DNA of 52,013 bases from Microbacteriaceae bacterium (GCA_025464815.1 JAODMW010000061.1:1-52013), one strand, 5' to 3'; positions 1,274 through 51,403 are shown, counted from the first letter of the stretch. Translations and numbers: made by a program. Notes: generated by a model not told the origin, from the sequence alone.

Positions 1274-1449
1274 GATTTCCTTCGAAGTTCTGGTGAGTGG
1301 ATCAGCGGGCGGTGTAGCCACCGTCGACGGGGAGAGCGATGCCGGTCACGTAGCTCGACTTGTCGGAGCAGAGCCACACAACCGCATCTGCAACCTCGAG
1401 TTCGTACTTCATGGAGAGGAACACTCCTCACACGTATGATGGCGCGTTG

Positions 1450-2238
1450 CTAGTTGGCCGGATGCACGACGGCGACGGCCACGCGACCCCCGTCGACATC
1501 GAGCACTGTCCCGTGTACGAAGGCGGCCTCATCGCTCGCGAGATACACCGCCGCGTGGGCGATAGCGTCGGGGGTACCACTCGCACCATGCGGAGTACCC
1601 CGCATCATGCGCTCCGCAACGCTCGACGGGTGGACAACGGATGTCGCGCCGTCGACGGTCTCGCGCACGACACCAGGAGAAATCGCGTTGACACGCACGC
1701 CCGCCGGACCGAACTCGGCCGCCCAGGAGCGAGTGAGGGTCTCGACGGCCCCCTTCGTCGAACTGTAGAGCGGGCTACTTCCGATCGCGAGCCGCGCAAT
1801 CCACGACCCGAGGTTGATGATCGCGCCGCCTCCGCGAGCGGCCATGATGGGGGCGATCGCGCCAGTGAGGTAAAAGGGAGCCTTCACGTTGACGGCATAG
1901 ACGCGGTCGAAGGTCTCCTCGTCGATGTCGACCGTCGCTCCGGAGGGAAAGATTCCCGCGTTGTTCACGAGGATGTCGATAGGGGCATCGAGGGCATCGA
2001 CTGCTTGGGCGGCCAGTGTACGGGAGGCGAAGGGCGATCCGTCGAGGTCTGCCACCACGAAATCGGCTCGCCCACCCGCCGCACGGATCCCAGCCACGAC
2101 GGCGTCGCCACGCTCACGACTGCGCCCCGAGACGATCACGTGCGCGCCCTCGACGGCGAACGCGACAGCGATCGCGCGACCGATGTTGCTCGTGGAGCCG
2201 GTGACGAGGGCGGTCTTGCCCTCGAGGCGTGTACCCAT
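1450..2238 (-). CDS. SDR family NAD(P)-dependent oxidoreductase
   Basis: TGSTSNIG, NNAG, YSSTK catalytic motif, VDGG. Confidence 0.93.
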   Translation of the reverse strand: MGTRLEGKTALVTGSTSNIGRAIAVAFAVEGAHVIVSGRSRERGDAVVAGIRAAGGRADFVVADLDGSPFASRTLAAQAVDALDAPIDILVNNAGIFPSGATVDIDEETFDRVYAVNVKAPFYLTGAIAPIMAARGGGAIINLGSWIARLAIGSSPLYSSTKGAVETLTRSWAAEFGPAGVRVNAISPGVVRETVDGATSVVHPSSVAERMMRGTPHGASGTPDAIAHAAVYLASDEAAFVHGTVLDVDGGRVAVAVVHPAN

Positions 2239-2300
2239 GCTGATTCCTCTTGCTTAGATGGTTTGCGGTCGAGCCGAGTTCGCGGACCTGCGGCATAAAC

Positions 2301-2348
2301 GGACTGCTCGTCCTCTTCGGTCCCTAACACCATATGGACGTCCCGTCC
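2301..2348. promoter_or_regulatory. Two GGAC-N5-GTCC palindromes, putative TetR operators in the divergent SDR/TetR promoter
   Basis: GGACtgctcGTCC 2301-2313 and GGACgtcccGTCC 2336-2348. Confidence 0.6.
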
Positions 2349-2371
2349 GCTTGTCAATTAGACTCGTGCAA

Positions 2372-2932
2372 ATGACCCCACCCCTGAGCGTCCCAACGCC
2401 ACAGCGCTCCGACGCTCGGCGCAACTACGACGCGCTGCTCGAGGCCGGCCGCATCACCTTCTCCAAAGGCCCCGAGGTGTCGTTCGAGGATGTGGCGCGC
2501 GCCGCGGGCGTCGGCAAAGGCACGCTCTACCGCCATTTCCCCACGCGAGACCACCTCGCGGCCGCCATCATGCAAGACGGCTTCGACCGCCTCGCGGCCA
2601 AGGCGGATGAATTGCTGAATGCGCAGGACCCATGGGCTGCAATGGAGTTCTGGTTGCGCGACTACGACCGCACGCCGATGCGCTATCCGGGCATCAGCGC
2701 ACGGCTGGGCGATGCGCTCGCCGACGACGCTTCCGCGGTGGCTACGGCCTGTCTGCCCATGAAGCTGAGCTTCGCCGAGCTGCTTCGCCGAGCCCAGGGG
2801 GCGGGGGTGGCGCGCGACGACCTCACGCCCACCGAGCTGCTTACCCTCATCAGCGCCCTGCCACAGAAACCCCGCAACTCCGACCGCTCGAGCCCATACC
2901 TCGACCTCATCCTCCGAGGCCTCCGCCCTTAG
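2372..2932 (+). CDS. TetR/AcrR family transcriptional regulator
   Basis: RSDARRNYDALLEA...EDVARAAGVGKGTLYRHFPTR; divergent from SDR; TAGACT -10 at 2359-2364 just upstream of ATG. Confidence 0.93.
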   Translation: MTPPLSVPTPQRSDARRNYDALLEAGRITFSKGPEVSFEDVARAAGVGKGTLYRHFPTRDHLAAAIMQDGFDRLAAKADELLNAQDPWAAMEFWLRDYDRTPMRYPGISARLGDALADDASAVATACLPMKLSFAELLRRAQGAGVARDDLTPTELLTLISALPQKPRNSDRSSPYLDLILRGLRP

Positions 2933-3951: not shown

Positions 3952-4009
3952 TTGACGGATGCGACGCGGCCGACATAGAGTCAGAAGAGTTTCGCCTTAA
4001 AACGATTCA
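3952..4009 (+). promoter_or_regulatory. Sigma-70 promoter (TTGACG-18-TAGAGT) with downstream LacI-type operator TAAAACGATTCA
   Basis: -35 at 3952-3957, -10 at 3976-3981, operator 3998-4009, then GAGGAGG RBS before ATG 4040. Confidence 0.7.
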
Positions 4010-4039
4010 ATCGACACTCAACGAGGAGGTTCCCCCGGT

Positions 4040-4847
4040 ATGTCGATGAGCCCCCCCACAACCGGGCAGGCCGTTCTCGAGCTTCGTAACGTCGCCAAGT
4101 CCTTCGGCTCTGCGGTTGCGCTGGCTTCTGCCGACCTGAGGGTGAAGACGGGGTCGATTCACGCCCTCGTGGGAGAGAACGACGCAGGCAAGTCGACCCT
4201 CGTGAAGATCGTCGCTGGACTCTACCAGCGCGACAGCGGCGAACCAGGCGACCGCGGAAGGCATTGCCAAAACGCAGGTCGACCTGATCACCAAGGAGAT
4301 CGGTGACACCGGCGACATCGCGATTCTCTCGGCTGCGGCAAACGCGACCAACCAGAACGCGTGGATCGAGCTTATGAAGAAAGACCTCACGGCCAATCAT
4401 CCGAACGTCAAGCTCATCGACACCGTGTATGGAAACGATGACGACCAGACGTCGTTTGACAAGACGTCGGCGCTTCTGGCCAAGTACCCCACCCTGAAGG
4501 GCATCGTGTCTCCCACCACGGTCGGAATTGCTGCGGCGGCACGCTACCTCTCCACCTCGGAGTTCAAGGGCAAGGTCGCACTGACCGGTCTCCGCACCCC
4601 GGACCAGATGCGCGACTACATCACCGACGGCACCGTCACCGCGTTCGCACTGTGGAATCCGGCCGACCTCGGCTACCTGGCCTCCTACACGGCCAAGGCC
4701 CTGATCGACGGCAAGATCACGGGCAAAGAGGGCGATTCATTCACCGCCGGAAAGCTTGGTGACTTCACGGTAGGCAAGGACGGCACCGTTGTGCTCGGCG
4801 ATCCGTTCACCTTCACGAAGGACAACATCGGCGCCTTCCACTTCTAG
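4040..4847 (+). pseudogene. Deletion-fused remnant of a rhamnose ABC operon: sugar ABC ATPase N-terminus joined out of frame to a RhaS-like binding protein C-terminus
   Basis: 4040-4243 gives [11 protein letters not shown]...[12 protein letters not shown] (Walker A with G>D); from 4242 another frame gives [10 protein letters not shown]...NATNQNAWI...SPTTVGIAAAARY...FALWNPADLGY, RhaS-like. Confidence 0.85.
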
Positions 4848-4879
4848 ATCGCCACGCGAGAGCTGAAAGGTCGACACAG

Positions 4880-7800
4880 GTGACAACCCACGAAGTACCC
4901 GCCCCTGCGCCAGTCAGGCTGCGAGCGGACGCACTCCCGCCATCCACCGCCGGGTCGCGGATGCTCAGCATCATTTCGGTCGATCGGCCGCGCCTGTCGT
5001 GGATGGTGCCTCTCACCCGGACGGGCCAGCAGCAATCCGGCTACCAGGTCGTGGCGTCGTCTCTCGATCACCCGGAAACGAACCCGAACTTCTGGGACAG
5101 CGGCATGGTCGACTCGGCCGAAAACTCCGGCATTGCCTGGGGTGGCAGTCCGATCCCGCCGCACTCCCGCATCTTTTGGACGGTGCGGATTCGGGATGAC
5201 CGCGGAACCGTCTCCGACTGGGCTCCGGTCGTTCCCCTCGACAGCGCGGCGTACACCGTGGCGGACTGGGACGCGGAGTGGATCGCTCCCCCGCCGACTC
5301 ATTCCGCCAGCATCGATGTGCCCGCCACGACCTCGGCAGTTACTTCGGGCCGCGTCTCGATCGCCGGCTGGGGACCGGCGCGGATCTCGGTGAACGGAAC
5401 CGTTGTTGGACCCGACGAACTCGACCCAACCGACTCGTCGCTGATGCGCGCCACCGCGCGAACCTACGACGTGACCGACCTGGTCGCCGCCGCGCGGGGT
5501 CCATTCGCCCTGTCGATCGTCGCCTCGCTCGGCCACTATCGTCTCGTGCTCGATCGCCCACGGGTGCTGGCCGAACTTCGGGTCTCGTGTGCGGACGGCA
5601 CGCAGCTCGTCGTCGGCACCTCCGGCGACTGGACAAGCACTCCGACCGGCCTGGTCGTCGATGAGCCGTTCTACCTCGAAGAGCACGACCCTGGTGCCGT
5701 GCACCCGAACGCCGCGCGTACTCCGCTCGAGGTGGTCGCACCTGACGCCTCACCGGCCTCCCCCTCGATCGTGGTTCCAAACGTCGGCCCGCCGGTGCGA
5801 GTCGTTCGAACGATCAACGGCTCGCTGATCGGGCGACCGGCTCATGGCATCCGCGTATTCGACCTGGGCGAAAACGTCGCCGCACGCGTGGCCCTCACGC
5901 TCGACGGCATGACCGCCGGGCAGCGGATCACCTCGGTTCAGGGCGAGAAGCTCACAGCCGACGGCCGGGTGGACACCACCAATATTCGCCTGCCAGACGA
6001 CAGACATCGCGAGCGGCAGGTCTTCGCCGTGGTGTGCGACTCGGAGCACGTCGAAGCAAGCCCCTGGTTCGCGGTGCACGGCTTCCGCTACGTCGAGGTC
6101 GCGGGACTCGACGACGACTCGATCGCCGGGGTGTCTGCCCGCGTTCTGCATTCCGATGTTGAACAGGTGGGCGAGCTGACGACGAGCGTCGCGGAGCTGG
6201 ATCGCCTGGTCGACTACGCCGTGCGCACCCAGCTCAACAACACGCACGGGCTCCCGGAGGACTGCCCGACCAGAGAACAGGGCGGGTGGACAGGGGACGC
6301 CTCGGTCTCCGCCGAGGCGGCGCTCTCCCACCTCGACCTGGCCGGCGTGTACCGTAACTGGCTCGCGGATGTCGCGCTGGACGCTGGGCCGGATGGCGGC
6401 ATCCTCGGCATCTCGCCACAACTGCAGGGGGCGCTCGGCGAGCAGCCAGCAGACCCCGTCTGGGGCTCGGCCATCACCGAGATCCCGTGGCAGCTCTGGC
6501 GAATCAGCGGAGACACCTGGCAGATCGAACCGCTTCTTCCCGCGATGCGGCGGTGGGCCGACTGGCAACTCGGAACGCTCGTCGACGGGGTGGTCAGGAA
6601 TGCCGCCATCAGTTTCGGCGCCGACTGGCTCGCCCTCGAACAGACGCCCCCCGTGCTCCTTCAGACGGCAGCCGTCGTGGTCTCGCTGCGCGCTCTGGCC
6701 GACCTCGAGGAGGCTGTCGGCGACGCGCAGGCTGCGGCATCGCGTCGGTCGCAGGCAGACGCCGTCGTCGCTTCGGCGAAAGAGCAATTGCGAGATCCCG
6801 TCGAAGGCACCTGGGGTAATGACTCCCAGGGGTCGAGCGCGGTGGCGTTGGTCGCGGGGCTCGCCGACCCGCTGGACATCCCTGGGCTGCAGGCTCGCCT
6901 CCGGGCGGCTGTGCATGTCAGGGGCGATCGGCTCGCGAGCGGATTTGCGGCGACGAAGGCGGTCGTTCGCGCACTCGCCGACGCAGATGGCGGCTCGAGC
7001 CTTCTCGCTGCGGTGCGGCAGCCAGAGCAGCCAGGAATCGGCGCAATGCTCATCGACGGACCAGGTACCTTCTGGGAGACCTGGTGGATCGACAACGAGA
7101 ACGTCGGCGTGGCCTCGCTCGATCACATTGGCCTCGCGGCGCCCTTTGCCGCATGGGTGTGGCGGGATGTCGCAGGCCTTCGCCTGCTCGAACCGGGCTT
7201 CCGACGGTTCACTCTCGACCCGCGGCTGCTCTCGGCCGTCACAAGCTCCAGGTTCAGCCGGGACACGGCACGCGGCACGATCATGGCGTCCTGGCAGCTG
7301 GCCGACGGTGTCTACCGAGCCGAACTCACCGTGCCGGTGGGCAGCATTGCCGAGGTGACGTGTCCTGGCGCAAACGAGGTCGTGCTTGACGGCCAACCCG
7401 CTGCGACGCAGACGGGTAACTCTGGCAGGAGAATCGTCATCGTAGGCTCCGGAGAGCATGCCGTGACTGTCGAATACCACGCGACCGCTGTGGCACCGGC
7501 TGCGGCACGACCGCTCAAGAGGCGTGCGGATGTCGGCGAGGTGTGGCTCTCCGATGGCAATCTCAGCCAGTGGACGCCGGTGGGCGGCGAGGCCACGGTG
7601 TCCGTTGCGAACACCGACGTCGTCTGCACGCCCGTCTTTCACGAGCCCATTGCCGCGCCGACGCTGGACGTCAGCATTCCCGACTTCGCGGCGGGTGAGA
7701 CAGAGTGGCTGGTGCTGGAACAGGACGCGCCCCTCGACCTCTCCGCGGCATCCTTCGCCTTCGCCAGCTTCGATGTGGATAATTCCGGAATCGTCGGGCG

Positions 7801-46261: not shown

Positions 46262-47071
46262 ATGAGCAACCAACCCATACAACACCCCGTCACCGTGAAG
46301 GTGGTGCCGCCGGTCGAGCCGACGCTTCTGAAGCGTGCGGTCGTTTACCTCCGTGTGTCGACATCCCATCAAGCGATCCGCGAAGTCGGCGAGCTCACCC
46401 GCAGCGAACTCGACGCCCGGCAGGAACACGACCAGGCCGTGCTCGCCAACCAGCGGCAACGGCTTATCAAGCTGGAACGCCAGAAGCAGAAGCTCATCGA
46501 TGCCCACCTCGACGAAGCCATCCCCGCTGAAGACCTGAAACCTCGCCAAGCCGCCCTGATGGCCGAGATGAACGATGCCCGCCGTCTGATCGCTGCCTGC
46601 CAGGACGACATGGTCCTGGTGCGCAAGCACGTCGAGCTCGTGCTCACCTTGCTCGGCAACGCCGGAAGACTCTACCGACCCGCCACCCTCGAACAACGCA
46701 AATGGCTCAACCTCGCAGTGTTCACCAGCATCGCCATCGACCTCACCGGTGACGACGACCCGCACCCCACCCATGAGACCATGACCGTGAAAATGACCGG
46801 TGGACTGGCCCAACCAGTGGCCGCCATCGCCGGACTCGCTCAACTGGGCACGAACGGCCGGAAAACCCGCGATACGGGCCCACACAGCGCCACAGGGGCC
46901 GAACTCCGCGGCTCGGCCAGCGCCCTGACGGGGCAAAGGAAAACCCCCAGCGAGCTTGCGCCTGCCGGGGTTTCAACGTGGACAACTTGGCGGAGACGGA
47001 GGGATTTGAACCCTCGGACCCCTTACGGGATCTCCACCTTAGCAGGGTGGTGCAAGGTGCATCAGGCCTGA
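46262..47071 (+). pseudogene. Internally deleted large serine recombinase (integrase)
   Basis: AAAGGAGG RBS; RAVVYLRVSTSHQ catalytic-Ser motif joined directly to a coiled-coil C-terminal region (RLIKLERQKQKLIDAHLDEAI); ORF runs into the tRNA fragment. Confidence 0.72.
46988..47054 (-). pseudogene. 3' fragment of tRNA-Ser(GCT) with CCA; attachment site 1
   Basis: Minus strand TGCA-CCACC-CTGCTAA-GGTGG-A-GATCCCGTAAGGGGTC-C-GAGGG-TTCAAAT-CCCTC-CGTCTCC-GCCA; 5' acceptor strand absent. Confidence 0.88.
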
Positions 47072-47088
47072 CATTCCGGGCCTTTGGG

Positions 47089-47145
47089 CACCCCAAACAC
47101 CCCGAACACCCCGAACGCCCCGAACACCCCGAACACCCCGAACAC
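47089..47145 (+). repeat. 9-bp tandem repeat (CACCCCGAA)x6
   Basis: Six units (two with one mismatch) plus a partial unit. Confidence 0.9.
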
Positions 47146-47216
47146 AGCATCAGCTGGATGACGGGGACACTGGTGGTACACGGCTCGGGCGACTCAACGA
47201 ATGGTCCGCCAGGGAG

Positions 47217-48353
47217 TTAGCCCGCGGCGGGCTCGGCAGTGATCGACTCCACGTTTAGCACCTCAGCATGCTCGCCCTCTATCCTCACGTGGAACTCGAT
47301 GGTCGCTTCGAGTTCGTCCGCGACGGCGGCCATATGATCGTTGTGGTCAAAGTCGACGACGTCGACTCCCTCGTAGACAGCGAGGTCCGACTTGAACATG
47401 TAGGCCCCGATCCCGACGTGCGCTCGAACAGTGAGTCGCCCGAGTACGCCGGCACCGGCATCCAGCTCGTCGTAGGGGTCCCAGTTCGCAGATTTCTCGT
47501 CGAGGTCAATACTTTCGAACTCGGGGTTCTCGAAGTAGGGCGGCGCGTCGTAGCCCTGGATCTCGAACTCGTTCCACCCGTATCCAGACGTGATCTCGTG
47601 ATACAACATCTGTCCGGAGACGTACGTCCACGCCGCGTCGACGGCGAGCTCGGTCTCGCCCTGTGTAACCTCCAGAGAGCGCCCGGCCACGAGCGTGGTA
47701 GGTCGGGCGACGGGAGTCTCGAGCGCCGTGACGTACTCGCGCGGATCCTTGTGCCAGGCCACCCGCGAAGCTTCAAGACCTCGCACGAGGTCGGGGTGCA
47801 GCGCGCCATCGTGTGTGAAGTCGTTCGTGTTCGACGAGATCAGGACGACGCGATCCGCCGGATCGACCGAGTGAAGGAGTTCGACGAAGGACCGCCAAAT
47901 CAGGTAGTCAGCGGTCCCTTCGCCGTTGGCATTGAACGGCTTCCGCGGGATGAAGTAAGCGTCGGCCAGGTGCTCCCCATCGACCGCCGGATAGGGGAGC
48001 AGCGTTACGTTCGACTCGTCAAGCCGCGCGCGAAACTCCGCCTCGAATTCCCGCGTCTCGGCGATTTCGTCGCGCTGATGACGCAGGCTGCCGACATCGA
48101 GCGGCGGCAGGGTTAGACCCAGATCGCTTAGTGACGTGTGCGCCTCACGATAGCCAGCAATGGCCGAGTTGATGGCCTGATGCCTCGGCTGCTCCTCGTG
48201 ACGCATGTGCTCGCGCAGCGCGACGAGGGGAAGATAGAGCTTGGCTCTCCCGTCCCTCTGTAGCGTCACGAGATTATTCCAGGCCGCGGACTCGAGCACC
48301 GGATCGCGGTAGAGGTAATTGGTATCGATGACGAGGTGATCCATACCAACCAC
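47217..48353 (-). CDS. PIN-domain protein (DUF4935/PIN_12-like) with acidic C-terminal domain
   Basis: LVIDTN, LREH, RKPF...ADYLIW, LISSNTNDF...LHPDL; AAGGAGG RBS before GTG 48353 (alternative ATG 48344). Confidence 0.82.
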   Translation of the reverse strand: MVGMDHLVIDTNYLYRDPVLESAAWNNLVTLQRDGRAKLYLPLVALREHMRHEEQPRHQAINSAIAGYREAHTSLSDLGLTLPPLDVGSLRHQRDEIAETREFEAEFRARLDESNVTLLPYPAVDGEHLADAYFIPRKPFNANGEGTADYLIWRSFVELLHSVDPADRVVLISSNTNDFTHDGALHPDLVRGLEASRVAWHKDPREYVTALETPVARPTTLVAGRSLEVTQGETELAVDAAWTYVSGQMLYHEITSGYGWNEFEIQGYDAPPYFENPEFESIDLDEKSANWDPYDELDAGAGVLGRLTVRAHVGIGAYMFKSDLAVYEGVDVVDFDHNDHMAAVADELEATIEFHVRIEGEHAEVLNVESITAEPAAG

Positions 48354-48583
48354 GAGGAGCCTCCTTCGTCGCATCGATCCTAGCCTCCGGCATCATGCCC
48401 GGACTGCCCGGCATTTACCTCGGGCAATGGGCCCGACGTCCGCGAGCGAGTGTCGCTCGCGTCTACTTCGCGCGATCGGAAACCTCGGCGACGGCAACCA
48501 TGCCGACCGGACGCCTGCGAGGACGCGCGCGACCGAGCCACGGCGGGGGCGTTCGGGCGGGAAAGTCCGCCGGATGTATCGAA

Positions 48584-48633
48584 ATGTCTTGATGTCGGAC
48601 TTACCGACATTGGATGTCGCGATACGATACAAT
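48584..48633 (+). promoter_or_regulatory. ATGTC operator-like array and -10 box TACAAT
   Basis: ATGTCGG-N5-CCGACAT 48592-48610, CGACAT-TGG-ATGTCG 48605-48619, extra ATGTC at 48584; TACAAT 48628-48633, 6 nt before ATG. Confidence 0.55.
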
Positions 48634-48639
48634 GGAGAA

Positions 48640-49491
48640 ATGAACGAAAACGCAACCAGTATCAGCATCACCGGCAAGCTGTCGTACTCCGACGAGATCA
48701 CGATTAGCCAGGCCGCCCAGATCATCGCCTACCTCAACTCGAACGAGTCCGAGGGTGCGGAACTGGGCGAGTCGCTGCTCGACAGCAGCACCACGAAGAA
48801 GAAGTCCAAGACCAAGAAGGTCGACAACCCTCGCGATGCGATCGAGCTGTCGGGTGCGACCAAGAACCCGGAGAAGATCGTCGCCCTCGGTGCGTATGTC
48901 CTCCAGGACGGGGGCGAGACGTTCAAGACCGAGGACGTCAAGACGCAGTTCCGCCGCGCACGCGAGACGCCGCCTGCCAACTTCACGCGCGACCTCAGCG
49001 TGGCGATCGCGTCCGGATGGGTCGTGGAGGACGGCCCCGGCGAGTACTACCTGAACAACAAGTTCGAGGGCATCTTCGATGAGGGCTTCAAGTTCCCGAA
49101 GGCGAGCGGGTCCGCGCGCGTCCGTACAGTGAAGAAGCCCGGCTCGAAGGCAAAGTCAGGCAAGCCGGAATCGCTGGCTGACGTGGACGAGTTCAGCCCG
49201 ACCATGACAGGCTTCCAGCCGTACTCGAAGATGAAGACCAACAAGGATCGCCTGCTGTGGGCACTGATCCTGATGCGTGATGAGCACGGCCGCAAGAGCC
49301 TGACCAACAAGGAGATCGAGTACGTCACCGACGTTGTCGGTCAGGGGATTCCGAACGCGCAGATCACGGCGGCCTTCGTTTCGGCTCAGAGTGCTGGCTA
49401 CGCCATCCGCTCGACGCAGGACAAGACCATCCGCGTTACCGACGAGGGAGCCACTTATCTCACAGAACTGAAGACTGAGACGGTGTCGTGA
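48640..49491 (+). CDS. Hypothetical protein with two winged-helix-like domains and Lys-rich linkers
   Basis: Domains NPEKIVALGAYV...PPANFTRDL...GWV...YYL and NKDRLLWAL...GYA...IRVTDEGATYL; GTGA overlap with next gene. Confidence 0.7.
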   Translation: MNENATSISITGKLSYSDEITISQAAQIIAYLNSNESEGAELGESLLDSSTTKKKSKTKKVDNPRDAIELSGATKNPEKIVALGAYVLQDGGETFKTEDVKTQFRRARETPPANFTRDLSVAIASGWVVEDGPGEYYLNNKFEGIFDEGFKFPKASGSARVRTVKKPGSKAKSGKPESLADVDEFSPTMTGFQPYSKMKTNKDRLLWALILMRDEHGRKSLTNKEIEYVTDVVGQGIPNAQITAAFVSAQSAGYAIRSTQDKTIRVTDEGATYLTELKTETVS

Positions 49492-50345
49492 CAGGGCATG
49501 ATCCCATCGCGCTGCGCCTGCAGCGCCTGGACCAGCAGATCCAGACACTCGTGCTGGCGTCGCTGGCGGCCGATCGTGACGACAAGAAGATCGTCACGCC
49601 GGCGGCGGTGTCTCAGCTACTCATCGATTTCGCCATCCCGGCGCCGGCCAAGATCGCCAACACGTTCGCCTCGCTGAAGAACAAGAAGCTGGTCATGTCC
49701 GTGCCCGGCAAAGGTGCCTACAAGGTGACCCCGGCCGGTCGCGAGGCGGTCGCGGAGAAGATGTCGGGACTCGATCTGGTAGCCCTGATCGCCGAGGGCG
49801 CAACGAGCAACGCTCCCGTGCTCGGTCAGACCACTACCGCTCTGGTGCCTTTCACGCTTGCCCCGCCTCAGCTTGTCCAGCCGCTTCGCGACTTCCTTGC
49901 CGACCACCCGTTCGACACCAACGTATTCGGCATGACTCGCTTTCCTGACACCAAGGCCGGAACCGCAGATCCGGTCGGCCGTGCGCTTGCGGTGGCTCGC
50001 GAGGCGTGTGAGGAGCACGGCCTCGAGTTCCACCTGGCCTCGGACCGCCAGATCGTGGACGATGTTTGGCCCAACGTGATGGCTCACATGTGGGGCTCCC
50101 GCTACGGAATCGGGTTCTTCGAGGACAGCGTTAACCGCGGGCTGAATTACAATCTCACGTCTGAGGTCGGCGCCATGTCCATGACCGGCCGTCGCGTGGC
50201 GATGCTCAAAGACGGCTCGATCGAGAAGATGCCGACGGACTTCACCGGCATGATCTACAAGTCGGTCGACCTTAAGGACGAGAAGACCGTCCGCGAGGCA
50301 GTCGGGACTTGGATCAAGGACGACCTTCGTATCGGGAACGCGTAG
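49488..50345 (+). CDS. Winged-helix-like N-terminus fused to TIR / nucleoside 2-deoxyribosyltransferase-like domain
   Basis: PAKIANTFASLK...YKVTPAGREAV; C-terminal NVFGMTRF...NYNLTSEVGAM..GRRVAMLKD...MPTDFTGMIY. Confidence 0.7.
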   Translation: MTGHDPIALRLQRLDQQIQTLVLASLAADRDDKKIVTPAAVSQLLIDFAIPAPAKIANTFASLKNKKLVMSVPGKGAYKVTPAGREAVAEKMSGLDLVALIAEGATSNAPVLGQTTTALVPFTLAPPQLVQPLRDFLADHPFDTNVFGMTRFPDTKAGTADPVGRALAVAREACEEHGLEFHLASDRQIVDDVWPNVMAHMWGSRYGIGFFEDSVNRGLNYNLTSEVGAMSMTGRRVAMLKDGSIEKMPTDFTGMIYKSVDLKDEKTVREAVGTWIKDDLRIGNA

Positions 50346-50354
50346 CGCCGGGCA

Positions 50355-50924
50355 CTACTTCTTGTCGGGAAGCGGCAGGTCGTTCTTGACCCGACCGAGG
50401 CCGCGCGGTGCGACCTTGATGTCGTCCATGTCCGCCGTGTCGATCACGCCCTCGAGGGACGCCGTCTTCTGCAGTGAGTTTCTCGGGTTGGCCGGAGGCT
50501 TCCAGTTAGCGTCAATGTAAAGGGTCAACACCTGGCTCGCATTCACCTTTTCATGACCGGCGATCTCCCTGAGCCAGTAGACCGCGACGACGTTCCTGTC
50601 GTCCTGATTGATCGGGTTCTTCTCCTTGGCAAATTCCCGCCAGGACTGGACGCCTTCGGGGTCGGTGACGAGGGTCTTGTCCTGGGACACCGAGGACTTC
50701 GAGCCCTTCTTTGCCCCGTTCGTGCGTTGCTTCGGCAGCTTTGGCGATTGATCCTCCTGAGCTGGCTCGGCAACCCTCGAGGGCTTCGGAGCAGCGACGG
50801 CAACTTGCGCACCGAGCATGTAGTCGAAAGCGCGGATCTGAAGTTCCTTGTTGCCGTCTATGGTCCTGATCACATTGAGTGCGCGCTCGACCTCCGCCGC
50901 GCGCTCGTCGAAGGTGCTGGTCAT
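50355..50924 (-). CDS. Hypothetical protein: N-terminal helical hairpin, linker, C-terminal winged-helix-like domain
   Basis: AAAGGAGG RBS; EFAKEKNP.NQDDRNVVAVYWL...PPANPRNSL...IKVAPRG. Confidence 0.72.
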   Translation of the reverse strand: MTSTFDERAAEVERALNVIRTIDGNKELQIRAFDYMLGAQVAVAAPKPSRVAEPAQEDQSPKLPKQRTNGAKKGSKSSVSQDKTLVTDPEGVQSWREFAKEKNPINQDDRNVVAVYWLREIAGHEKVNASQVLTLYIDANWKPPANPRNSLQKTASLEGVIDTADMDDIKVAPRGLGRVKNDLPLPDKK

Positions 50925-51140
50925 TGCACCCTCCTTTCGAGTTGTTACATGTTAGTGGGAACCGAGCACTTCTCGACAGGCTCCGCACTATGACGCATCA
51001 ACACGGCTTCCACCGGCTCCAGGCCGTCGGCAAAGTTTCGACCCCTGAGCGAACCGACATTCAACTCTGGATGCGGCCCTCAAGTTATACGCACACATCA
51101 GAGACGCAAGGACTTCACTCTTCCAAGGTGGAGCACTTCG

Positions 51141-51161: not shown

Positions 51162-51245
51162 AAGAGATGTTGGTACGGGCGGATTTCACTCGCAACGCCT
51201 CAGACCGCCACGTACGAACGGGCCTCTGACCAGGGGTTTCAAGAG

Positions 51246-51303
51246 CGGAGACGGAGGGATTTGAACCCTCGGAACCCTTGCGGGTTCTCCACCTTAGCAG
51301 GGT
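51246..51303 (-). pseudogene. 3' fragment of tRNA-Ser(GCT) without CCA; attachment site 2
   Basis: Minus strand ACC-CTGCTAA-GGTGG-A-GAACCCGCAAGGGTTC-C-GAGGGTTCAAATCCCTC-CGTCTCCG; homology ends inside the anticodon stem. Confidence 0.88.
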
Positions 51304-51382
51304 CTCGGTTTGCCCATCACAGCCGACTTTTCCCGCTTTCTGACTCGTCCAAACACACCTCGCACACCATCATCGCGTTGAG

Positions 51383-51403
51383 GGGGACACTCGGGGGACA
51401 CTG
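51383..51403 (+). repeat. Tandem GGGGACACT repeats, left arm of the next tandem element
   Basis: GGGGACACTC-G-GGGGACACTG about 80 bp right of att 2. Confidence 0.7.

Follow-up and report, generated by a model that had tools for sequence, protein, structure and literature searches.

A Winged-Helix Partner Gene and a Winged-Helix–TIR Effector Gene Form a Conserved Pair, Very Probably of the Predicted Poly-wHTH Family

Organization of the Locus

Two adjacent genes, here called A and B, lie in a 52,013-nucleotide stretch of DNA from a Microbacteriaceae bacterium (GCA_025464815.1 JAODMW010000061.1:1-52013), which is referred to as the window; genome loci are given as L numbers and genomes as G numbers. 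A 4.2-kb segment of the window, bounded by two copies of the 3' end of tRNA-Ser(GCT), holds four genes, namely A, B, a third gene C, and a divergent PIN_12 gene. A preliminary description, drawn from the sequence, had proposed that A, B, and C make up an undescribed three-gene defence module built on four related winged-helix units, one of them fused to an effector domain. The three open reading frames (ORFs) and the motifs quoted for them are indeed present at the coordinates listed here, and the three genes share one domain family. The unit conserved across genomes, however, is the pair A and B, and not the triplet.

48640..49491, plus strand: gene A, the partner (283 aa; 192 homologues at E<=0.001)
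49488..50345, plus strand: gene B, the effector (285 aa; GTG start)
50163..50165, plus strand: codon of Glu226 of B, an invariant Glu with a likely catalytic role
50355..50924, minus strand: gene C (189 aa; convergent to B)

The stop of A and the GTG start of B overlap by 4 bases, and the convergent gap between C and the stop of B is 9 bases.

A Winged-Helix Family Shared by A, B, and C

Winged helix-turn-helix (wHTH) units occur twice in A and once each in B and C. Gene A encodes an N-terminal beta-hairpin and helix (residues ~6-33), a linker, a first wHTH (~62-148), a Lys-rich linker, and a second wHTH (~194-280). In B, an N-terminal wHTH (residues 5-92) precedes a domain of the TIR or nucleoside deoxyribosyltransferase (NDT) fold (residues 140-282), and C comprises an N-terminal helical hairpin, a Lys-rich linker, and a wHTH (residues 90-183). 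The units carry the motifs PPANF / PAPAKI / PPANP and IRVTDEG / YKVTPAG / IKVAPRG.

Comparison of HH-suite profiles linked the first unit of A (A-wH1) to the unit of B (B-wH) at 95% (E 2e-8) and the second unit of A (A-wH2) to B-wH at 93% (E 3e-7), while B-wH and the unit of C (C-wH) were linked at 50%, and A-wH1 and C-wH at 27%. The value was 1.8% for A-wH2 and C-wH, and all controls of the units against other domains stayed below 0.5%. A profile seeded solely with A-wH1 and C-wH recruited B-wH by iteration, and among 27,761 reading-frame segments (the genome plus the loci) its matches in the bacterium's own genome were A, B, and C alone. A broader profile scored all four units, with A-wH2 the weakest (E 1.4e-4). 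A (twice), B, and C carry one wHTH family, and their relatedness is beyond chance; the HH-suite, iterative, and broader profiles agree in this with the preliminary description, although A-wH1 and A-wH2 are linked directly at only 0.8%, which is not significant. No column is invariant in either of two wHTH alignments (A6 and A8).

In the AlphaFold models made for A and B, that of A has a predicted local distance difference test (pLDDT) score of 84.9, with low confidence in the Lys-rich linkers. Its second unit (residues 193-283) matches MarR/PadR-type wHTH structures (Z ~9), and A-wH1 appears in one row of matches only. No match above cut-off was found for A, B, or C in Pfam, PADLOC, or NCBIfam, so that the earlier failure to recognise a named system holds for these model libraries, and 30 related partners and effectors likewise received no PADLOC or NCBIfam assignment. 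Weak matches of the three proteins to PDC-S35 (E 0.007, 30 residues) and YjhX in the library scans were rejected. Sequence searches of the PDB returned weak wHTH rows only (DtxR, ArsR), and Foldseek searches with the A and B models returned nothing at E<=0.001.

The Enzyme Domain of B

The AlphaFold model of B (pLDDT 87.6) matches wHTH proteins over residues 13-99 (HrcA 1stz, Z 10.7, root-mean-square deviation (rmsd) 2.8, 81 aligned). Over residues 143-282, the structural matches are tied among MilB (Z 11.9), the SfSTING TIR domain (11.9), and two NDTs (11.8 and 11.4). The fold first assigned to B is supported by structure, and its candidate catalytic residue, Glu226, is conserved, being invariant in 104/104 rows of the alignment (A3). 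One search gave 597 homologues of B, and a second one 1,414 representatives. Among 51 distant relatives scanned, five score above the cut-off of PF10137 (CAP12/Pycsar TIR), and their Glu aligns with E226; none of the 51 passes that of PF05014 (nucleoside 2-deoxyribosyltransferase), to which weak matches are common. The ESM Atlas returned unnamed clusters only, the nearest named families for B being PF10137 (0.80) and PF05014 (0.78), which serve as leads only. By analogy with these relatives, the enzyme domain of B is likely a CAP12-like TIR, and from its family it would be expected to cleave NAD+. The wHTH of B is less conserved than its TIR domain in 83/83 rows (38% vs 60% identity).

The TIR-like domain of B also occurs in other settings. 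It is fused to CHAT and STALD domains, to STALD, and to HEAT repeats in the proteins P0192, P0256, and P0241, and it can therefore be regarded as a mobile effector domain that lies between PF10137 and PF05014 and has no model of its own. A stand-alone gene of 312 aa with the same domain at ~30% identity is present at L055 (128-1066, plus strand) and on nine further small enterobacterial plasmids (3.6-13.6 kb). On all 10 plasmids the match to B covers the TIR domain only, in a lone gene with no wHTH partner annotated. Several copies of B in metagenome-assembled genomes are frameshifted, which may reflect assembly errors.

A and B as a Conserved Pair

The neighbourhood of B was compared across 49 genome loci, of which 47 were testable and two were without upstream DNA; rows from the same locus and rows more than 35% identical were dropped before profile scoring. 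The ORF directly upstream of B matches the wHTH profile in 35/47 loci at E<0.05 and in 38/47 at E<1, a count that is descriptive, because some B loci are kin and the profile itself came from these loci. Several of the upstream misses look like diverged partners (37-41%), and one partner lies 270 bases away. A further subgroup of partners (L015, L024, L025, and L035), scoring 6.9%, falls within the control range and is excluded from the 35. The partners share one plan, in which a Lys-rich linker joins a small N-terminal domain to the wHTH; their sequences differ greatly. Exchange of partners is evident at L038 and L039, where the B proteins are 80% identical and the partners 6%, and one partner type cannot be placed on the B tree with fewer than 3 changes.

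Homologues of C, in contrast, are found near B in 3/49 loci. Because a partner stands upstream of B in 35/47 loci and a C homologue near B in only these three, the conserved unit is the pair, and the three-gene module of the preliminary description does not hold. Two of the three C homologues near B head a pair of their own with a HEPN-motif protein that ends in a related wHTH, and the third is followed by another partner. Among metagenome loci with C, a wHTH-HEPN gene comes next in 5/5 (in one, the contig stops short of the motif), and a TIR pair lies near in 1/5. As this HEPN-type gene is missing in the window, C can be regarded as an orphan: judging from gene neighbourhood, it apparently belongs as partner to another pair, of the HEPN type, that lacks its effector gene in the window, and it is not a core part of the system. 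C itself is intact and has a strong ribosome-binding site upstream. Plasmid searches with C and three other partners gave no match. At L075, a TIR pair stands back to back with a HEPN pair of the C type (1373-2865, minus strand, and 4001-5349, plus strand), a second case in which the two pair types lie together.

A mobile, patchy, and defence-like setting is supported by the copies of the tRNA end and by the spread of B among relatives, as a DNA search of 18 same-genus genomes found a partial B match in one. Near the 49 B loci, mobile-element genes were counted at 15, tRNA or tmRNA genes at 15, and defence or toxin-antitoxin genes at 10, these being raw counts without a background control. At L007, A and B stand beside tRNA-Ser(GCT) without C.

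The Wider Family and Its Effector Slot

Profile searches of four phylum samples matched 8/401 genomes in the window's phylum and 11/301, 8/301, and 21/251 genomes in the others, seeds included, and the wHTH class is therefore widespread as well as unannotated. The effector slot was read by eye at 43 loci from these searches, with seed loci and two unpublished genomes left out. It holds HEPN-type genes at 18 loci, TIR-type genes at 3, and a ParA+RelA combination at 1; none was seen at 17, and 4 are unclear. The HEPN labels were mostly assigned from RxxxxH-like motifs, with Pfam support for DUF4145 in 2 cases and for PF18165 in 1. No cNMP (cyclic nucleotide monophosphate) cyclase or HKD effector was recognised in these 43 loci, a small sample with short flanks. 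Effector swapping, which the preliminary description had named as a point for a neighbourhood survey, is thus seen, with HEPN, TIR, and ParA+RelA genes in the same slot.

Effectors of both the TIR and the HEPN type carry this wHTH family at the N-terminus (for HEPN, E 1e-8 to 2e-5), and HEPN proteins also carry it at the C-terminus (65.6% vs <=7.6% for 58 unrelated controls). These fusions indicate that effectors have repeatedly acquired the domain of their partner. The ParA+RelA locus, L138 (genome G1082), carries a wHTH gene followed by AAA_31 (ParA; E 1.5e-27) and RelA_SpoT (E 2e-16), the genes overlapping on one strand. Against a profile that predates retrieval of the locus, the wHTH of L138 reaches E 1e-6, with 74% against B-wH and 59% against A-wH1. 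Arrays of 2-4 wHTH genes occur at L016, L035, L044, L050, L106, L107, and L110, and an A-type gene stands alone at L067. By eye, the N-terminal extensions fall into two clear classes with subtypes, the beta-hairpin and helix of A and the helical hairpin of C (A vs C 0.85%).

Some loci depart from this pattern. Lone wHTH partners, some with long Lys/Ala/Pro-rich tails, are found in Acidobacteriota (L118, L119, L124, L126-L134) and Verrucomicrobiota (L096, L098, L099), in recurring housekeeping settings with acyl-CoA dehydrogenase and bioY-like genes or sufS/sufU, and are possibly domesticated nucleoid-type proteins. At L068, L069, L087, and L091, the partner is accompanied by a gene of the PF18165 type (pPIWI-associating nuclease), and in two cases type I restriction-modification genes lie alongside; the PF18165-type effector has no wHTH of its own.

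Relation to Poly-wHTH and Other Known Systems

A computational preprint has predicted a class of systems termed poly-wHTH or PRA-wHTH (Li, Burroughs and Aravind, bioRxiv 10.64898/2026.10.19.760177, 22 Oct 2026). According to the part of its text available to us, a fast-evolving wHTH was first seen upstream of ParA and Tox-RelA; other effectors are HEPN (most often), cNMP cyclase, HKD, and TIR, and sometimes there is none. Multiple or tandem wHTH copies and at least four N-terminal extensions are described, and the proposal is that the wHTH coats nucleic acid of the invader while the effector serves as a backup. A and B resemble this class, as so described, in having a fast-diverging wHTH gene upstream of a swappable effector, with HEPN the commonest and TIR included. 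The N-terminal extensions vary too, with two clear classes here and at least four in the preprint. Tandem copies (in A), wHTH arrays, effectorless copies, and the ParA+RelA context at L138 are further points of likeness. Because this last context is the one that defines poly-wHTH, A and B very probably belong to the family as a TIR-type addition. The label "undescribed" therefore has to be dropped, since the architecture, the TIR option, the tandem copies, and the coating of invader DNA are already in the available preprint text.

Several features go beyond that text as available, namely the effector's own wHTH, the detail of the TIR type, the swapping of partners, the operator-like site described below, and C as the orphan of a HEPN pair. 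There is also a difference in mechanism, in that the preprint text makes the effector a backup to DNA coating, whereas direct activation by clustering is suggested here. In the part of the preprint available, the class occupies a single paragraph, and no Pfam, PADLOC, or NCBIfam model of it was found. No experimental test of the family was found in the literature covered, which does not extend to subscription papers. A and B offer a compact and intact two-gene test case of 1.7 kb, with E226A as a clear mutant, an upstream candidate operator, and C as a natural orphan partner. The locus poses the question of whether DNA-binding domains alone could serve as the invader sensor for a TIR enzyme, without a cyclic nucleotide or an RNA guide.

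Among retrons, the effector of Ec86 appears to carry a wHTH. In the portion of the Retron-Eco1 (Ec86) report consulted, an NDT-like enzyme sits in a DNA-containing filament, and a title cited there calls such filaments NAD+-hydrolysing (PMC12746101). The NDT-like enzyme is the point of likeness, the DNA-containing filament being a feature of Ec86. Unlike Ec86, neither the segment nor the scanned neighbours contain a reverse transcriptase, there is no retron RNA, and the domain order and partner differ. The neighbours in question are those of the Pfam neighbour scan, which covered 202/222 neighbour ORFs and 2 added ones (204 in total).

The TIR of CAP12/Pycsar (PF10137) is similar in fold, B being matched to the SfSTING TIR 7un8 (Z 11.9, rmsd 2.9, 122 aligned), and N-x-x-x-E-x-G and P-x-D-x-x-G motifs are common to B and the five relatives above the PF10137 cut-off. 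However, a wHTH takes the sensor position in B, there is no STING or cNMP-binding sensor, and B itself does not match PF10137. None of the four segment genes and none of the 204 scanned neighbour ORFs is a CBASS or Pycsar cyclase. Thoeris shares the TIR fold (B vs ThsB 6lhy, Z 9.2), yet no ThsA-type effector is present in the segment or the scanned neighbours, and in related loci the slot of B is held by toxin-type genes. The absence of a cyclase and of ThsA from the segment is as first described. The TIR-I to TIR-IX systems of E. coli are, in the portion of the report available, one- or two-gene systems that depend on their TIR active site and bring growth to a halt (PMC11350192). They are similar to A and B in gene number but differ in that this portion names no wHTH partner, the comparison being one of description and not of sequence. 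Menshen was rejected as a match, since its wHTHs are described, in the text available, as sensors on a ParB-type protein (PMC12065111). The portion consulted of a survey of TIR signalling does not mention wHTH (10.64898/2025.12.03.692087).

The Region Upstream of A

48592..48610, no strand assigned: inverted repeat with 7-bp arms, a candidate operator over the promoter-like site
48604..48633, plus strand: promoter-like site upstream of A, 9/12 consensus matches (1 found vs 0.6 expected by chance)

A GTC-N9-GAC-like element occupies the same place as the inverted repeat in 9 aligned A-type loci, and a -10-like TACAAT/TACACT upstream of A is conserved across the aligned loci. WGTC/GACW was counted 28 times over the 9 loci, compared with 14.8 +/- 3.1 in shuffled sequence (0/500 as high), for loci that are kin and a pattern picked post hoc.

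Proposed Mechanism and Alternatives

A role of A and B in defence is probable. As to how they might act, we tentatively favour a reading in which A and B gather on DNA and thereby cluster the TIR domains into an active NADase that aborts infection. In this process, A would oligomerise through its small N-terminal domain, and its two wHTHs would bind DNA, probably including the site over its own promoter. B would then be recruited through its own wHTH, either to A or to this DNA. On phage or plasmid DNA entering the cell, the assembly would grow and the TIR domains of B would cluster. The clustered TIR domains would cleave NAD+ or a related nucleotide by means of E226, and growth would stop, as in abortive infection; C may add to the DNA coating. 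The main support for this proposal comes from the repeated fusion of one wHTH family, both with TIR and with the N- or C-terminus of HEPN. The oligomerisation of TIR NADases is a requirement, according to the part of the relevant report consulted (PMC10899771).

Several findings weigh against clustering on DNA and a defence role. The fold of B fits TIR and NDT/MilB about equally (Z within 1), and B matches neither PF10137 nor PF05014 in the Pfam scan. Relatives of B are absent from the viral-contig and phage collections searched, and the neighbours of most B loci are ordinary. B stands without a partner in 4/47 loci (L046, L049, L051, and L053; two truncated). On a B tree of 36 rows, partner type needs 11 changes where 10 would be the minimum; it thus mostly tracks the tree, as would also be the case for toxin-antitoxin pairs that co-evolve. 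The wHTH domain, furthermore, is not always defensive, since the 17/43 family loci without an effector lie in many cases in repeated housekeeping settings of Acidobacteriota and Verrucomicrobiota.

The alternative that survives best, although we consider it somewhat unlikely, is a guard similar to a toxin-antitoxin pair, in which A would silence B by binding it and would repress the shared promoter, and free B would deplete NAD+ once phage displaces or removes A or the element is lost. The partner-first gene order with its 4-base overlap, the low-confidence Lys-rich linkers of A, and the partner types that largely follow the B tree would all suit such a guard. So would the inverted element conserved over the promoter, for which the kinship of the 9 loci and the post hoc pattern leave the operator as only a lead. 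The near-identical effectors of L038 and L039 with their unrelated partners, however, argue against such a guard, as do the arrays of 2-4 wHTH genes, the lone partners, and the few loci with B lacking a partner.

A broader form of DNA clustering, which is speculative and rather unlikely as a whole, is a modular DNA-sensing immune platform in which exchangeable wHTH partners set the foreign-DNA targets, and effectors carrying the same wHTH (TIR or HEPN, at either end) are activated by co-assembly. On such a platform, an orphan partner like C could widen the targets of B.

Rok and Lsr2 are built from an oligomerisation domain, a basic linker, and a DNA-binding domain. The partners might similarly be nucleoid-type DNA-bridging silencers or regulators, with B a ligand-sensing co-regulator or non-defensive enzyme, and both the effectorless loci, many of them in stable housekeeping settings, and the structural neighbours of the wHTH units, which are MarR/PadR/HrcA regulators, point in this direction. 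We nevertheless consider this improbable, given that HEPN-type and RelA-type genes fill the slot of B elsewhere, that E226 is invariant, and that the spread is patchy and mobile.

It is more doubtful still that B, sensing phage DNA, makes an ADPR (ADP-ribose)-type messenger, as in Thoeris, for an effector encoded elsewhere, such as the neighbouring PIN gene. The TIR fold and a PIN gene in the same segment are in its favour; on the other side, a PIN_12 homologue is present at 0/49 B loci, neighbour clustering gives no recurrent third gene, and no SIR2 or Macro match was found among the scanned neighbour ORFs. Finally, an obligate machine of A, B, and C is extremely unlikely despite an intact C with its strong ribosome-binding site and C-type genes near a TIR pair in 3/49 B loci and 1/5 C loci, as C is convergent and has no homologue at 46/49 B loci including L007, and as its homologues have a HEPN-type gene of their own at 5/5 metagenome C loci and 2/3 of those near B.

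Segment Boundaries and Neighbouring Genes

47217..48374, minus strand: PIN_12 gene, divergent from A, separate cargo (PF16289, E 1e-14)
46990..47054, minus strand: left boundary, an attachment-site-like copy of the tRNA-Ser(GCT) 3' end
51245..51303, minus strand: right boundary, a copy of the tRNA-Ser(GCT) 3' end identical to the intact gene on contig C60

The PIN gene was rejected as a member of the system on the count of B loci given above. The C-terminal domain of its protein is acidic and falls in no known family, and the protein is possibly the product of a stand-alone defence gene.

The intact tRNA-Ser(GCT) gene lies at 16388-16477 of contig C60, 380 bases from the contig end. ARAGORN reports a tRNA-Ser at 51245-51333 (minus strand) of the window, whose last 59 bases are those of this true gene and whose 5' half is foreign, with stem mismatches; it is a chimera, an attachment-site copy, and no whole tRNA. 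A third copy of the tRNA-Ser(GCT) 3' end, more diverged, is found on contig C119. Together, the chimeric and third copies point to stacked insertions at tRNA-Ser(GCT).

No integrase is present inside the 4.2-kb segment. An ORF at 46262-47071 (plus strand) has a start resembling a serine recombinase and then jumps to a coiled-coil C-terminal part; it gave no Pfam match, and a 77% DNA match to it lies beside the intact tRNA-Ser in genome G1259. It opens with VYLRVS, which we take to be a serine recombinase motif, and is probably the remnant of a deleted integrase from an older island. Repeats cluster near both boundaries, with a 9-base repeat present six to eight times immediately inside the left one (47082-47152), a 74% resemblance between 47129-47181 and 51349-51401, and a 21-base repeat at 51140 and 51382 that flanks the right one. 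All three are possibly arm sites of an integrase.

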